Shown: positions 1,668-20,559, counted from the stretch's first letter. The stretch: DNA of 64,000 bases from Candidatus Doudnabacteria bacterium (GCA_016218585.1 JACRDK010000031.1:65764-129763), one strand, 5' to 3'. The notes: generated by a model from the letters alone, not told the origin. Made by a program: numbers and translations.

Positions 1668-2981
1668 CTACTTTCCGTCGCGTCCGACCAAGAGACCCGG
1701 AGTAGTTGCAAGCAACTCCAAGTCGGCGGCGTCCACCCCATAAAGAGCGAGCTTGAGAGCAAATTCGACCATGAGGTGATCCTGGCGCCAACGCTGGATG
1801 CCACCCACCGAAACTTTTGTTGCCAAAAGCACGGCGATGTTTTCCGGATCGGGATCCGCCAGCAAGGCCGCATACTTCTCAAGCCTTTCAGGCGGTGAAT
1901 GCTGGGGCCTGTCGAGATCGTCCAGAGCCATCGCCAGCATAGCGTTGTTCATGAGGCGTGGAACCAGAACCTGCTCGATGAGAGTGTACATCAGGGAATT
2001 GAAGGCGAGGAATTGTTTAAAGATTTCCTCCACTTCCTCCTCAGAGAGGCCGTAGCCCAAGTCGGAACGAAGCGCGTGGCAGTCGAACTCAATGACGCCG
2101 TTCCAGCCTATCTCGTCCAGGTACTTAAAAATAAGCACCATGGTCTCCTGGCCTTCCCCAACGAGAGTCGGGAAGTCATCGTCGAACTGGCCGGGAATCT
2201 GGCCGCCGATGTGCAGGAAGAACAGTTTTTTCTGGTCAGTGGCGTGCATGACTTCCAGGAATGGGTGCTGGTTGCCCATGGCGCTGTGTTGCGGAATTTC
2301 GGGATTTACACCCCAAAAATCGGGGTCGTCGAGGGTGGCAATGAGAGCCAAGGCGGCGCCGACGAGAGCGATGTACATTGCCCCGCGGGGTTCATTGCAC
2401 TTAGGCTCAATCGTGCCGTGCTTGATGGTGTATCGGTTGGCTTTGCAGGACGCCGAGATGATGTTCAGTGCCTGACGAAGCCATTCGAGAGGGCTGTTGT
2501 CACGGCGCGAGGGTACGCAGACGACGGATTCAAAACCGTCGCGCGCGACCCAGTACGTGATGAACTCGGCACCGAGAAAGTTGCCAATCCAGGCGCAACG
2601 AAGGGCCTTCTTGATGGCGAGCACGCGGATTGCCGCGTCGCGGTTAGTGAAACCGCCGGCCGTGAACATGGGGTGTCCGTGAAGACTGCACGTAATCATA
2701 TGCATCTTCAGGCCCGCCTTGTCCATGACTGCCTTGATGGCGCGAAGCTCTTCATGGATTGGATGCTTGGGATTCTTGTAATCCTCGGGGTCGTCTGGAT
2801 CCCAACCCAGCAGATCGTCGTCGTGGGCTGAGAAGAGATCAATGTACCCACTGGTCTTGGCCCATGCCAAGATAGACATGGCCTTGAGAACGCTCATGGG
2901 TTTGAGCACCGGGCCACCGAACGGGTCGGCGCCCTGATATTTTACAGTCCAGAGAGCGCCGGAGCGCAATCTTCTTATCAT
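1668..2981 (-). CDS. xylA: xylose isomerase (class II); high-GC foreign-looking gene
   Basis: 437 aa; motifs FSAHDDDLLGWDPDD (cf FHDxD..LGWDTDQFP), IEPKCNEPRG (cf IEPKPxEP), YWVARDGFE (cf WGGREGYE); strong AGGAGG Shine-Dalgarno; about 60% GC against a roughly 40% background. Confidence 0.65.
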   Translation of the reverse strand: MIRRLRSGALWTVKYQGADPFGGPVLKPMSVLKAMSILAWAKTSGYIDLFSAHDDDLLGWDPDDPEDYKNPKHPIHEELRAIKAVMDKAGLKMHMITCSLHGHPMFTAGGFTNRDAAIRVLAIKKALRCAWIGNFLGAEFITYWVARDGFESVVCVPSRRDNSPLEWLRQALNIISASCKANRYTIKHGTIEPKCNEPRGAMYIALVGAALALIATLDDPDFWGVNPEIPQHSAMGNQHPFLEVMHATDQKKLFFLHIGGQIPGQFDDDFPTLVGEGQETMVLIFKYLDEIGWNGVIEFDCHALRSDLGYGLSEEEVEEIFKQFLAFNSLMYTLIEQVLVPRLMNNAMLAMALDDLDRPQHSPPERLEKYAALLADPDPENIAVLLATKVSVGGIQRWRQDHLMVEFALKLALYGVDAADLELLATTPGLLVGRDGK

Positions 2982-3312
2982 ACTAATAATCCTCCTGAAC
3001 GTTTCGGACTATTACCAAAAAATCCCTGAAAAAGACTATTTTGGCAATCAAAATATCTTACACCTAAGCGGAGTAATCGTCAATAGACAAAAAAACAACC
3101 TTCTCTTTATGGAAGGCCGTCTTATTATTAATACAATTAATATTAACCCTACATATTTCCAACTGCACGATTCCTGCGGCGCGCCTGACCGCCCCCGACT
3201 GGACAATTCGCAGTTTACCCCGTAGCGGAGCCGATGAACGTCGCAGCGACTGGTACTGGGGCGAATTGTCCAGTTGAACGATAATTGTATAAGTATAAAT
3301 TTTACTTCCCTT

Positions 3313-15367: not shown

Positions 15368-15396
15368 TTGCCAGTTTGAGGAAATTTTGTTAAAAT
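15368..15396 (+). promoter_or_regulatory. sigma70-like promoter (TTGCCA-17-TAAAAT)
   Basis: Consensus-like -35/-10 with 17-nt spacer, upstream of the structured leader and the GIY-YIG gene. Confidence 0.3.
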
Positions 15397-15538: not shown

Positions 15539-15784
15539 ATGTTTTACATCTATGTTTTAAGAAGCAGTAAAAACAATAAACGATACGTTGGTTCGACATC
15601 AAAGTCGCCCGAAAAGCGAACCAGCGAACACAATAATGGTATTAATAGTTTTACCAGGCACAACAAGCCATGGAACCTAATATACCAAGAATCATTTACG
15701 ACAAAAAGCGAGGCTTTAAAAAGGGAAAACTTTTTGAAGTCTGGTCAAGGCCGTAAATGGCTTGATGAAAATATTCGGGAGTAG
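15539..15784 (+). CDS. small GIY-YIG nuclease-domain protein
   Basis: FYIYVLRS..RYVGST motif; stop codon overlaps the first 10 nt of the tRNA. Confidence 0.6.
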   Translation: MFYIYVLRSSKNNKRYVGSTSKSPEKRTSEHNNGINSFTRHNKPWNLIYQESFTTKSEALKRENFLKSGQGRKWLDENIRE

Positions 15785-16177
15785 CTCAGCGGTAGAGCAA
15801 TCGGCTGTAGACACAGGTCTCAAAAGACCAAATTAGCAGCCTTCTCAAGTAATTGAGAAGTGAATAACGAGGTGAATTGTCCCGATGACAAGTCGGGATT
15901 CCGAAATCGCTTGAAATATTAGCGGAGTCGGAACTGGAAACCTAAATTCGTAAATTACGAATATGGCAATCAGCAGCCAAGCCCAGTTCTTTTAAAAAAA
16001 GATCTGGGAAGGTTCAGAGACTATCTCGAAAGAGAGTAGGCCTTAATAAGTTAAGGTCGAAGCCCCTCGTCCCGTACTCTTTTTATAGAGCGGGAATGAT
16101 ATAGTCCACTCCTAATAGAAATATTGGGGTTACGTGTAACCGATGGGTCCTGGGTTCGAATCCCAGCTCCCGAGCCA
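15775..16177 (+). tRNA. tRNA-Asn(GUU) interrupted by a group I intron in the anticodon loop (exons 15775..15808 and 16137..16177, CCA encoded)
   Basis: Acceptor stem TCGGGAG/CTCCCGA, D-arm GCTC-AGCGGTA-GAGC, anticodon stem ATCGG/CCGAT, T-arm CTGGG-TTCGAAT-CCCAG, G73, CCA. The spliced anticodon loop is CUGUUAA, and U1-A72/G73 match bacterial tRNA-Asn. Confidence 0.7.
15809..16136 (+). other. group I self-splicing intron (tRNA-type, IC3-like)
   Basis: Conserved Q-like AATCAGCAGCC (15969), R-like GGTTCAGAGACTATC (16011), S-like AATGATATAGTCC (16095); P7 GACTA/TAGTC. Internal guide GCAGCC (15836) pairs with exon end GGCUGU including a U-G wobble; UUA just 5' of it can pair with 3' exon UAA (P10); terminal G at 16136. 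Confidence 0.75.
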
Positions 16178-16255
16178 TAACAAAAAGTCTCATCTTTATG
16201 ATGGGGCTTTTTGTTATTCTTTGGGTTTGCTGAAATTACGATTGAGTCTGACACA
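16178..16255. repeat. intergenic repeat family copy (3' half, inverted); serves as terminator right after the tRNA
   Basis: Reverse complement matches ATTCAATCGTAAT.TCAACAAACCCAAA.AATAACAAAAAGCCCCATCATAAAGATGAGACTTTTTGT. Confidence 0.7.
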
Positions 16256-17901: not shown

Positions 17902-18156
17902 TTAGGGCTTCCTCAGGAAATAGAGATTCAGCGGTACCATGCGGCCGAAAAGAAACCCGGCCTGCTGGTAATGATGGACTTCACCGTGGCTCTTTAGCAC
18001 GTGGTGGAGTTCCAGCACGGTCCGATCTTCGCCGGATCGCGTGGCCACCAGGTACCAACCGCTGTTTTCGTGCTGCTCGATGTAGTCGAGCGTATCATCG
18101 ACCGGGACGACCCGGCCGAAGACTTCATCAGTGCTGTTGCGTCTGATTGCTGTCAT
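17902..18156 (-). CDS. hypothetical small protein; high-GC foreign operon gene 3
   Basis: 84 aa; AGGAGAA SD; GC about 60%. Confidence 0.45.
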   Translation of the reverse strand: MTAIRRNSTDEVFGRVVPVDDTLDYIEQHENSGWYLVATRSGEDRTVLELHHVLKSHGEVHHYQQAGFLFGRMVPLNLYFLRKP

Positions 18157-18165
18157 CGTTTTCTC

Positions 18166-18555
18166 CTATAACACATCCATGGGCGGTGGCGAACTTACCA
18201 CATTCAGACCATACCGCCGTGCAACCATCTTGGCTACCAGAGGGTTTACAGCGAAAACCAAAGCGGTTCCGACAATAAACCCGACTGCTTCCAAGGCGGC
18301 AAAAATGAACCCACCGTCCGGGCCGTCTGAAGCAAAGCCGACAAGGCCTGACAGGCCCAGCAAGGCAAAGCTGCCCAGACTGCCGAAAAAGTACAGGCAT
18401 ACAAACCACACCCAGCTCCTGGTGGACGATTGCCTCCTGTCCATGACTGAACAGGTTGCTTTGGCATGCCGGGCTTCGCCGATATTGCTAATAATGACCG
18501 CGATGGCCACCGAAAGCAGTACGAAACCTAAAACTATCAATACTTCCTTAAGCAT
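18166..18555 (-). CDS. hypothetical 3-TM membrane protein; high-GC foreign operon gene 2
   Basis: 129 aa; GGAGGA SD. Confidence 0.45.
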   Translation of the reverse strand: MLKEVLIVLGFVLLSVAIAVIISNIGEARHAKATCSVMDRRQSSTRSWVWFVCLYFFGSLGSFALLGLSGLVGFASDGPDGGFIFAALEAVGFIVGTALVFAVNPLVAKMVARRYGLNVVSSPPPMDVL

Positions 18556-18711
18556 ACATCCTCCAATTTTGAAATATCTACCCTTCCAAATTCACCTTTC
18601 GACAGGCTCAAGACCTGTGGCAAAATTAGATGAACTTAGAAGGATGAAGCAAGTGGCGCGAATACTTGCTTCAAGTTTAGTGTATGGCCTTCGCGCGGCC
18701 AAGTTGCGGTT

Positions 18712-20559
18712 TTACTTCTTCGGCTGGCGGATCTTCTTGCCGAGTTCCCGAAGCTGCTCGGGGCTCATCTGCTTAATCTCTTCCGTCACCGTTCTTGCTT
18801 CGTTTTGCGCTTCTTCCTTGTCCCGGCGCTGGGTCGAGCGTTCGGTCACCTCGGTCTGGGCCTTAGTGACTTCCAGCGGAAGCGATAGATTGTCGAAGTT
18901 ATGCATCGGGACGATATCTTCGCCGGAGGCGAAGTATTCGATCTTGACCTTGTCGCCCGGCTCCGTTACCGGGAGTTTGTGGAAGTCGGCGCTGCCGCCA
19001 GTGAACAGATGCGGAACGCCTTTCAAATGCACGTAGTACACGGCGCCCGTAGTCAGCAGATCCGGCTTTACCCGGTCCACTGTTCCCTCGATGGTTTGCA
19101 AATCGCGCGTCTTGTCGAGCGCCACTTGTTGGCCGAACTGGGAGAGTAGTTTTTGATAAGCGCGGAGTGCTTCGAACTGGTTGCGGCCAGTCGCGACGGT
19201 CTGGATATTGGTGATATCCACAATCGCGACGCCCTGGTAAGCGTGATTCTCTGAGAGCAACGGAACGACCGATGACATAATGCCGTAGACGTTGTAGAGT
19301 TGCGGGTCGACGCCATGGAGCTTCTTGTACTGGACATCCTGGTTCTTGCTAATCGCGTCTAGCACCGCCTGGTCCGTCCCGCCGCCTTTGGTCTTATACA
19401 ACACCGTCTTCCCAGTCCGGGAGTTAGTGTAGACGAGAGATACGAGCGAGTCGTCCTTGTCATTGCGCGAGGTCAGGCCGGTCACCCAGTCGGGTTGCTG
19501 GTCGGAAGCATAAATCAGGTTGGGGTCTTCGGGTTTGGTAAGGTCTTTCGTACCCCACCAGCTGTTGAGCCAACCGTGCGTGTATTCGCCCCACCAGTCG
19601 AGGTAATTCTTGACGTAATTGGACGGAATAGCGCGGTCGATCCAGTCGGGAATTTCTCCCATCCTTTTGAAATTGATGTCGCCGGAAACTGGATCCACGA
19701 TGGCCACGCCCGTGACCTTTTTACCGCTCCACATGATGGTCGGTTCAAAAGTCGAAACTACCCACCACGGCCGCTGGTTATCGTCGATCTCAAACTGGTA
19801 TTCGGCCAGACCCTTGCCCAGGTACCCGTTATTGCGCAGATGCCGTTCCAAGTTGTTCCCGAAGCAGGCTTCGGGCATGTAACGGAACTGTTGGTCGGAG
19901 AGCAGGATCTTGAGAATAGGTTGCCGATGCGGATCTTCGCCGTGGACCATGATGTAACCGGGTGTCGCCTTGGTGTTGAGCCAGACCGAGAAGCCGGAAA
20001 AATCCAGCGGCGCCACATACCACAGTTCTCCGTTGATCATCTGCAAAGTCATGTGATCCTCGGAAATGACGAACTGGCTGCCGATCGCGCCCGCTTCGCC
20101 GAGGGCTTTCTTAGCCAGGTAGATGGCGTTCTCCCGGGTGGACATGCGCATGTGCTTGGGGTCCTTGGGTTGGACGTCTTGGGTCCACACCCTGGTTTCC
20201 AGAGATCCGATCATATGCTGGTATTCGTCGGCGCGGAACAGGCCGCTTCCCAGAATGAAGCTACCGATATACAACACGGCAGCCCCGATCGGGAAAATCG
20301 CGGCTTTGGTGATATGGGTATCGTAGTCGTCTTCGATGAACGCGTCGATGACGGCGGCGATGATCCAGCAGATGAATATAAACACGCCAGGCACGCCGAA
20401 CAGCGGCCAGACAGTCGAAGGGGTAGCGAGGTAGAAGACAAGCCAAAGAACAATGGCCGAAATCGACCCCTGCCAAACGGCAGCCGTAATCTTCCTTCCC
20501 ATTAGGAGCGGGACGGTTCCGATTGCGGCGCAAATCAACGCTGCAAGAAAGTAAAACAC
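18712..20559 (-). CDS. hypothetical large membrane protein (4 N-terminal TM helices plus about 450-aa extracytoplasmic domain, charged C-terminal tail); high-GC foreign operon gene 1
   Basis: 615 aa; GTG start 7 nt after AAGGAGG. Confidence 0.5.
   Translation of the reverse strand: MFYFLAALICAAIGTVPLLMGRKITAAVWQGSISAIVLWLVFYLATPSTVWPLFGVPGVFIFICWIIAAVIDAFIEDDYDTHITKAAIFPIGAAVLYIGSFILGSGLFRADEYQHMIGSLETRVWTQDVQPKDPKHMRMSTRENAIYLAKKALGEAGAIGSQFVISEDHMTLQMINGELWYVAPLDFSGFSVWLNTKATPGYIMVHGEDPHRQPILKILLSDQQFRYMPEACFGNNLERHLRNNGYLGKGLAEYQFEIDDNQRPWWVVSTFEPTIMWSGKKVTGVAIVDPVSGDINFKRMGEIPDWIDRAIPSNYVKNYLDWWGEYTHGWLNSWWGTKDLTKPEDPNLIYASDQQPDWVTGLTSRNDKDDSLVSLVYTNSRTGKTVLYKTKGGGTDQAVLDAISKNQDVQYKKLHGVDPQLYNVYGIMSSVVPLLSENHAYQGVAIVDITNIQTVATGRNQFEALRAYQKLLSQFGQQVALDKTRDLQTIEGTVDRVKPDLLTTGAVYYVHLKGVPHLFTGGSADFHKLPVTEPGDKVKIEYFASGEDIVPMHNFDNLSLPLEVTKAQTEVTERSTQRRDKEEAQNEARTVTEEIKQMSPEQLRELGKKIRQPKK

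Follow-up and report, generated by a model that had tools for sequence, protein, structure and literature searches.

A group I intron, very probably of self-splicing type, in the tRNA-Asn(GUU) gene of a Candidatus Doudnabacteria-labelled sequence

The tRNA-Asn locus

The window considered here is a stretch of DNA of 64,000 nucleotides (nt), read on one strand, from a source labelled Candidatus Doudnabacteria; all coordinates are counted from its start. It contains a transfer RNA (tRNA) gene for asparagine, tRNA-Asn(GUU), whose anticodon is interrupted by a group I intron. When introns are allowed, ARAGORN makes a sole tRNA call in the window, tRNA-Asn(gtt) [15775,16177], and places the 328-nt intron after position 35; by default the program reports zero tRNAs across the 64 kb, and under neither setting is a second tRNA found. 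Rfam family RF00028 (Intron_gpI) matches 15836-16128 on the + strand (59.1 bits, E = 2e-12, model positions 1-253 of 253), above the gathering score of 50, and a gathering-threshold scan of the 64 kb finds no other Rfam family. The original prediction had placed a tRNA-Asn(GUU) gene, split at 35/36 by a 328-nt group I intron, at 15775-16177, and had named a group I covariance model and tRNA finding with intron detection as checks. Both searches return the element, ARAGORN with exact coordinates, and the observation is confirmed far above chance. The parts of the gene are as follows.

15775-15808, + strand: tRNA-Asn(GUU) 5' exon, tRNA nt 1 to U35 (ARAGORN with introns; same as the 5' part of the intronless tRNA-Asn of the related contig L204)
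15809-16136, + strand: group I intron, 328 nt, IA-type, without an open reading frame (ORF) of its own; terminal (omega) G at 16136 (RF00028, homology, covariation)
16137-16177, + strand: tRNA-Asn 3' exon, U36 to A76, with G73 and an encoded CCA (ARAGORN with introns)

Spliced in silico, the exons give a tRNA-Asn that is identical at 75/75 positions to the intronless tRNA-Asn(GUU) in L204, a metagenomic contig in which the same GIY-YIG nuclease gene as in the window lies upstream of the tRNA gene (1749-1823). The anticodon loop once spliced is CUGUUAA, and the tRNA body carries U1-A72 and G73, all features that had been claimed for it. Judged by these results and by homology to a tested relative, the locus is very likely a tRNA-Asn(GUU) gene, probably of a member of Candidatus Doudnabacteria, with a self-splicing-type group I intron of subgroup IA at U35/U36.

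Fold of the intron core

The predicted core comprises helices P1 to P9 (the module that branches from P4 is listed separately below).

15803-15841, + strand: P1, GGCUGU 15803-15808 with GCAGCC 15836-15841; loop L1 15809-15835, 27 nt, with a small hairpin (sequence; covariation)
15842-15859, + strand: P2 hairpin, UUCUCAA/UUGAGAA with a GUAA loop (7/7 pairs compensatory)
15868-15874, + strand: P3 5' strand, CGAGGUG, partner 16063-16069; U15873 x C16064 mismatched in the window copy only (alignment, covariation)
15934-15974, + strand: P4 (G15879 + CUGG 15934-15937 with UCAGC 15970-15974) around P5 (15941-15966); one P4 pair changes from U-A to G-C
15975-16014, + strand: P6/P6a, AGCC/GGUU and CCCAG/CUGGG (5/5 P6a pairs compensatory)
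16019-16023, + strand: P7 5' strand, GACUA, partner UAGUC 16102-16106; pseudoknot with P3; guanosine-binding helix (Rfam alignment; invariant)
16024-16058, + strand: P7.1 (16024-16035, GAAA loop) and P7.2 (16039-16058) (covariation; 8/8 P7.2 pairs compensatory)
16063-16069, + strand: P3 3' strand (21-relative alignment)
16070-16095, + strand: P8 hairpin (21-relative alignment)
16102-16106, + strand: P7 3' strand, UAGUC (Rfam alignment; 21-relative alignment)
16111-16128, + strand: P9 hairpin, GAAA loop (21-relative alignment)

The guide GCAGCC (15836-15841) is complementary to the exon end GGCUGU (15803-15808), with a U15808.G15836 wobble at the splice site, as originally described. In this register of P1 the U.G wobble falls on U35 and U33 forms a Watson-Crick pair with A15838; the same holds in 21/21 aligned relatives, across which the four P1 pairs CUGU/GCAG are invariant. 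Within the core, AATCAGCAGCC supplies P4' plus the beginning of P6, GGTTCAGAGACTA lies at 16011-16023 and GATATAGTC at 16098-16106; GACUA and UAGUC form P7. The last nucleotide of the intron is G16136. The Q-, R- and S-like motifs, P7 and the terminal G that had been read from the sequence are all present where they were placed.

Comparative support for the fold comes from a structure alignment of 21 introns chosen as too short for an endonuclease gene. On this alignment RNAalifold recovers P1, P2, P3, P4, P5, P6/P6a, P7.2, P8, P9 and the exon-exon anticodon stem. The full P1-P9 model, with the P7 pseudoknot and P7.1 included, was counted on the same alignment against shuffled and slid controls. 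Cells with a standard pair amount to 94.9%, compared with 77.5% after shuffling and 34-48% when partners are slid by 1-3 columns. Compensatory pairs number 36/65 (29.0 shuffled; 18-26 with partners slid 1-3 columns), and the covariation score is 0.457 (0.148 shuffled; at most 0.135 with partners slid 1-3 columns). P7 is invariant in the 21 relatives and is neutral as comparative evidence.

The location of P7.1 and P7.2 between P7 and the P3 3' strand is a hallmark of subgroup IA and is backed by covariation; by these predicted hairpins the intron is IA-type, in agreement with PMC13011429. An assignment to IC3, suggested by the resemblance of P4-P6 to Azoarcus, was rejected, as P7.1 and P7.2 are present with covariation support.

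Phage introns of subgroup IA (T4 td, Twort orf142-I2) also have P7.1 and P7.2 between P7 and P3', and they interrupt protein-coding genes. Viral contigs of IMG/VR very often carry the IA-type core pattern GCAGCCAA...GTTCARAGACTA...GATATAGTC (at least 120 matches, L002-L121). Several of these contigs hold two or three copies of the core close together, as would fit phage introns of this subgroup. Because phage-intron matches are so abundant in viral contigs, the pattern was not applied without exon context to larger collections.

The P1 loop also differs from its first description. A 23-nt hairpin, AGAC-ACAG-GUCU, had been drawn between the splice site and the guide and called atypical; the loop is 27 nt (15809-15835), its preferred fold is a GGUCU/AGACC hairpin, and its length is within the range of 4 nt to several hundred nt seen in tRNA-Asn introns of Patescibacteria, some of which house HNH genes there. 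In the endonuclease-bearing published members the coding sequence starts right after the 5' splice site, before the guide (PMC13011429). Relatives of 580-680 nt likewise have long P1 loops and are similar in size to the published members that carry HNH genes. The 328-nt intron of the window holds no ORF of a size relevant to an intron-encoded homing endonuclease.

Relation to published tRNA introns

The class to which the intron belongs is already known: it was catalogued in 2020, its splicing was shown in 2025-26, and the window is a further example. A computational listing (Williams 2020, bioRxiv 10.1101/2020.01.27.920355) raised the number of intron-bearing tRNA types from the classical four to 21, among them a type "Asn.4Ug", which corresponds to position 35/36 according to Nakagawa et al. 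(mSystems 2026, PMC13011429). In 95 complete genomes of Patescibacteria the latter authors found 15 tRNA-Asn(GUU) genes with 35/36 introns, four of which contain HNH endonuclease genes, and classified 25/28 introns at 35/36 as subgroup IA. They demonstrated self-splicing in vitro for one tRNA-Asn example (GCA_016700035.1) and one tRNA-Asp example, and a mutant of the former with its terminal G changed to C was blocked in splicing (PMC13011429). The host tRNA and the 35/36 site had been thought unusual; that premise held for the classical literature and is no longer a novelty.

The window gene was aligned by MAFFT to 13 introns from Table S3 of PMC13011429, 11 of them from tRNA-Asn and one each from tRNA-Asp and tRNA-Phe. 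In this alignment the window intron matches the 11 published tRNA-Asn 35/36 introns motif for motif, including the validated GCA_016700035.1. Shared features are the host tRNA, the junction CUGU|UAA, the guide core GCAG, the blocks GGUGAAUUG, GGAARCC, AAUCMGCAGCCAAG, GGUUCAGAGACUA and GAUAUAGUCC, a 3' end of the form ...GUG| followed by UAA, the P7.1 and P7.2 hairpins, a variable P1 loop and, very probably, a host among the Patescibacteria. The window intron differs from the published ones in a 54-nt module in the P4 strand, in one mismatched P3 pair and in the lack of an HNH gene. Doudnabacteria are represented in the published set by tRNA-Phe and tRNA-Tyr introns only, whereas the window holds a tRNA-Asn intron, and the locus contributes a Doudnabacteria-labelled example to the known class.

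The classical bacterial examples, in tRNA-Leu(UAA) of cyanobacteria, tRNA-fMet, tRNA-Ile(CAU) of Azoarcus and tRNA-Arg(CCU) of Agrobacterium, are self-splicing group I introns that likewise sit in the anticodon loop. They share with the window intron the U.G wobble at the 5' site, the terminal G and a similar P4-P6 consensus (GGAAACCUAA...UAUGGCAA...GCCAAG). In contrast to the IA-type intron of the window, at 35/36 of tRNA-Asn, they are IC3 introns at 33/34, 34/35 or 36/37.

Introns of this kind also matter for the reading of genomes. Default tRNA finders miss the gene, and the genome then seems to be without tRNA-Asn and is scored as less complete, a point made by Nakagawa et al. Among close relatives the intron may be present or absent, as the intronless tRNA-Asn of L204, identical to the spliced product of the window, illustrates.

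A two-hairpin module in P4

The 54 extra nt of the window intron lie at 15880-15933, between J3/4 (GAAUUG) and the remainder of P4 (CUGG).

15880-15933, + strand: two abutting hairpins (15880-15898 and 15899-15933) in the P4 5' strand, between G15879 and C15934 (alignment, folding, covariation)

The minimum free energy of the module in the window is -22.7 kcal/mol, and the window holds no further copy of the 54-nt sequence. The module is missing from 13/13 aligned published introns and from a truncated tRNA-Asn entry, GCA_016699425.1; the 12 published tRNA-Asn sequences that are readable at the module site (the 11 aligned and GCA_016699425.1) all have no module there.

Further carriers were sought with a scan pattern that covered the P3-to-P4' span and required extra sequence in the P4 strand, applied to species-representative genomes (29 loci) and JGI metagenomes (41 loci). 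Complete genes could be resolved for 56 scanned loci, and all 56 have the tRNA-Asn junction CUGU|...G|UAA; they contain 48 distinct introns. Many of these homologous loci are named Thr(tgt) with an intron at 33 by ARAGORN, a known miscall. The presence of an insert in the scanned loci is by design, because the pattern demanded sequence at the module site; the informative result is the independent two-hairpin folding. Despite divergent sequences and lengths of 31-58 nt, 46/47 distinct inserts fold alone as exactly two adjacent hairpins.

MAFFT and RNAalifold failed to align the variable hairpins, and a covariance model (R1) was used instead, built on nine sequences and comprising 13 base pairs; 66/71 sources searched contain a match to it. 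On an alignment (A3) of 54 distinct sequences, 96.6% of cells are paired, 12/13 pairs are compensatory, and the covariation score is 0.477, compared with 0.150 for shuffled sequences and at most 0.059 for slid partners. Alignment A3 was fitted to R1, which somewhat favours the structure; the single-sequence folds, which are independent of it, agree.

The carriers (L122-L191, at least 47 distinct variants, from genomes and metagenomes) include metagenome-assembled genomes (MAGs) labelled Saccharibacteria, Parcubacteria, Uhrbacteria, Nomurabacteria and Peribacteria. Nine of the loci (L125, L126, L130, L132, L134, L138 and L143-L145) bear the MAG labels Gammaproteobacteria, Bacteroidetes or Epulonipiscium; either the intron family extends past the Patescibacteria or these contigs have been mis-binned.

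The comparison of sequences shows selection on the module as a structural element, conserved through its pairing, in a large sub-lineage of the tRNA-Asn introns. Its role would most likely be stabilisation of the fold or the binding of a partner. An origin as a recent mobile mini-element was rejected: the window has a single copy, at least 47 distinct variants occupy one and the same site, and the stems covary. No description of the module was found in Williams 2020 or in Nakagawa et al., and a limited search of the literature on insertions at P3-P4 gave nothing relevant.

We know of no equivalent of this two-hairpin module in phage IA introns. The covarying module and the overlap of a GIY-YIG gene with the 5' end of tRNA-Asn, described in the following section, may be new; both leave the main verdict on the intron unchanged, and the remaining interest of the locus lies in these two features.

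The upstream GIY-YIG gene and the host

Directly upstream of the tRNA, and overlapping it, is a short protein-coding gene.

15539-15784, + strand: GIY-YIG nuclease gene, 81 amino acids, catalytic domain only; its stop is formed by U8-A9-G10 of the tRNA (Pfam PF01541, E 5e-18)

The stop codon TAG of the gene coincides with U8-A9-G10 of tRNA-Asn, and the two genes overlap by 10 nt. The same 10-nt overlap is found in L122, L128, L141 and L157, despite protein identities of about 38-72% (those measured) and differing acceptor stems. When homologues on longer contigs were sampled, 8/9 stood directly upstream of tRNA-Asn(GUU), with the 10-nt overlap in 5/8, and most of the tRNAs were intronless. In 49 of 120 GIY-YIG homologues the penultimate residue is Pro or Arg, as it should be where tRNA nt 2-7 (UCC... 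or UCG...) serve as the final two codons. A search of the literature on a linkage of GIY-YIG genes with tRNA-Asn found nothing relevant.

The nearest solved structures are stand-alone GIY-YIG proteins of the UPF0213 type (PDB 1ywl, EF2693; 1zg2, BH0048), which have about 80-100 amino acids and likewise consist of the catalytic domain alone. The subfamily of the window differs from UPF0213 in its fixed place directly upstream of tRNA-Asn and in its frequent use of the tRNA U8-A9-G10 as a stop. The model for I-TevI-like GIY-YIG homing endonucleases (TIGR01453) gives 18.6 bits, below its cut-off of 56.05, and covers residues 4-38 only, with no full-length match that takes in the DNA-binding domain.

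NCBI lists a protein, by its name from a "Candidatus Doudnabacteria bacterium" MAG, to which the GIY-YIG product is 100% identical; the other close homologues belong to Doudnabacteria, Moranbacteria, Yanofskybacteria and Falkowbacteria. The closest intron loci are in Saccharibacteria and Parcubacteria MAGs. By these sequence matches the host is very probably a member of the Patescibacteria, and it is probably a Candidatus Doudnabacteria MAG.

GIY-YIG paralogues also occur just past tRNAs: in L122 a second ORF lies about 128 nt after the tRNA, and in L155 one lies about 50 nt after it. In L207, a tRNA-Cys ends 14 nt before the GIY-YIG ORF. An association with tRNA genes may be general among the small GIY-YIG genes in these genomes.

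Proposed splicing and alternative readings

By analogy with the tested relative, the precursor would be transcribed, possibly jointly with the upstream GIY-YIG gene, and the intron would fold into its P1-P9 core, with the guide GCAGCC and the exon end GGCUGU forming P1. An external guanosine bound in P7 would then attack after U35. G16136 would replace the guanosine, and the freed 3'-OH of U35 would attack after G16136. The joined exons would present the anticodon loop CUGUUAA, and RNase P and other processing would yield a normal tRNA-Asn. In this reading the 54-nt two-hairpin module that branches from P4 is a lineage-specific peripheral element.

Several points weigh against this reading. 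The P3 pair U15873 x C16064 is mismatched in the window copy, and the 20 other relatives in the alignment have U.G there; C16064 is a small blemish and, within the intron itself, the chief argument against full activity. The C in place of G could be a true polymorphism, a mildly deleterious substitution or an error of sequencing. The module stands beside J3/4 and P4, where the core is sensitive, and no experimentally tested intron carries one. A P10 pairing of UUA with UAA, part of the original prediction, is possible in the window copy and is not conserved, since the three bases that precede the guide vary among the aligned relatives; it was left uncounted as evidence for this reason. Only 64 kb of the genome are visible, and a second intact tRNA-Asn may be present elsewhere. 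That the window copy splices is predicted from homology to the tested relative.

A wider reading, rather unlikely though compatible with a spliced tRNA-Asn, treats the tRNA-Asn locus of Patescibacteria as a composite hotspot for the GIY-YIG gene, the 35/36 IA intron and the P4 module. The GIY-YIG protein or another factor, perhaps bound to the module, would couple nuclease expression, tRNA-Asn maturation and the persistence or mobility of the intron. If true, this would explain the frequent invasion of tRNA-Asn in particular within the phylum. RNase P cleavage of a joint GIY-YIG/tRNA transcript would strip the GIY-YIG gene of its stop codon.

It is improbable that the window holds a decaying copy, in which the P3 mismatch, the 54-nt insertion or both have inactivated the intron and left a tRNA-Asn pseudogene, with a functional tRNA-Asn elsewhere in the genome. 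C16064 would fit such a history, as would the 64 kb that are visible, with no other tRNA in them; however, an intronless tRNA-Asn gene of a relative has the same sequence as the exons, and the invariant core motifs are all intact. Nor is the window copy an outlier at conserved positions: it is off consensus at 2 of the columns that are at least 90% conserved (family range 0-9), one deviation being a compensated P2 pair and the other C16064. Rather than a lesion, the insertion is a module that is conserved and covaries across at least 47 distinct variants, and intronless and intron-containing copies of one anticodon rarely occur together in a genome (PMC13011429).

Less credible still is "collaborative homing", in which the free-standing GIY-YIG endonuclease would cut intronless tRNA-Asn alleles, the intron would shield its own allele and the selfish pair would persist. 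The 10-nt overlap conserved in the window and in four related loci and the weak, sub-threshold similarity to TIGR01453 are in its favour, but in most sampled relatives (L192-L196, L200-L206) the same GIY-YIG gene precedes an intronless tRNA-Asn. This linkage to tRNA-Asn and not to the intron argues against simple homing of that kind; the 81-amino-acid protein, moreover, is a catalytic domain without a DNA-binding domain, and the function of UPF0213, its closest solved relatives, is unknown.

Two junctions have the required U just ahead of the 5' splice site and a terminal G in the intron: 35/36, which yields the anticodon GUU (Asn), and 33/34, two bases over, which yields UGU (Thr). The 35/36 junction is favoured because of the P1 register, the 75/75 match to the L204 tRNA-Asn and the junction of the GCA_016700035.1 homologue, which was read by sequencing the exons joined in vitro (PMC13011429). 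A tRNA-Thr(UGU) with both splice sites shifted (...GGCU|GU...ACG|UGUAACC), formally possible, often called for such introns by ARAGORN and tFind and on record as an ambiguity in PMC13011429, is very improbable here, given also the U1-A72 pair and G73, a body identical to intronless tRNA-Asn(GUU), and the ARAGORN call of the window locus itself as Asn with an intron after position 35.

Flanking sequence

Two signal-like sites flank the pair of genes.

15368-15396, + strand: promoter-like site upstream of the GIY-YIG gene (consensus match; such sites are fewer than expected by chance)
16177-16217, + strand: terminator-like hairpin directly after the tRNA (consensus match only)

The promoter-like site might permit co-transcription of the GIY-YIG gene and the tRNA, a weak suggestion from its sequence. 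In exact-protein look-ups the GIY-YIG product matched no contig, and a DUF2000 protein encoded downstream of the tRNA matched only a short Logan contig that begins past the tRNA. In L204, a serine recombinase (Resolvase) gene (1782-3243) lies directly downstream on the opposite strand and hints at an integrative element at the tRNA. The composition of the window is patchy: at 18001-20000 the G+C content is 54.6%, compared with 38-40% in the flanking 14-18 kb. This high-G+C stretch contains an ORF of 615 amino acids that resembles a membrane protein (18712-20559, - strand) and may have been acquired horizontally.

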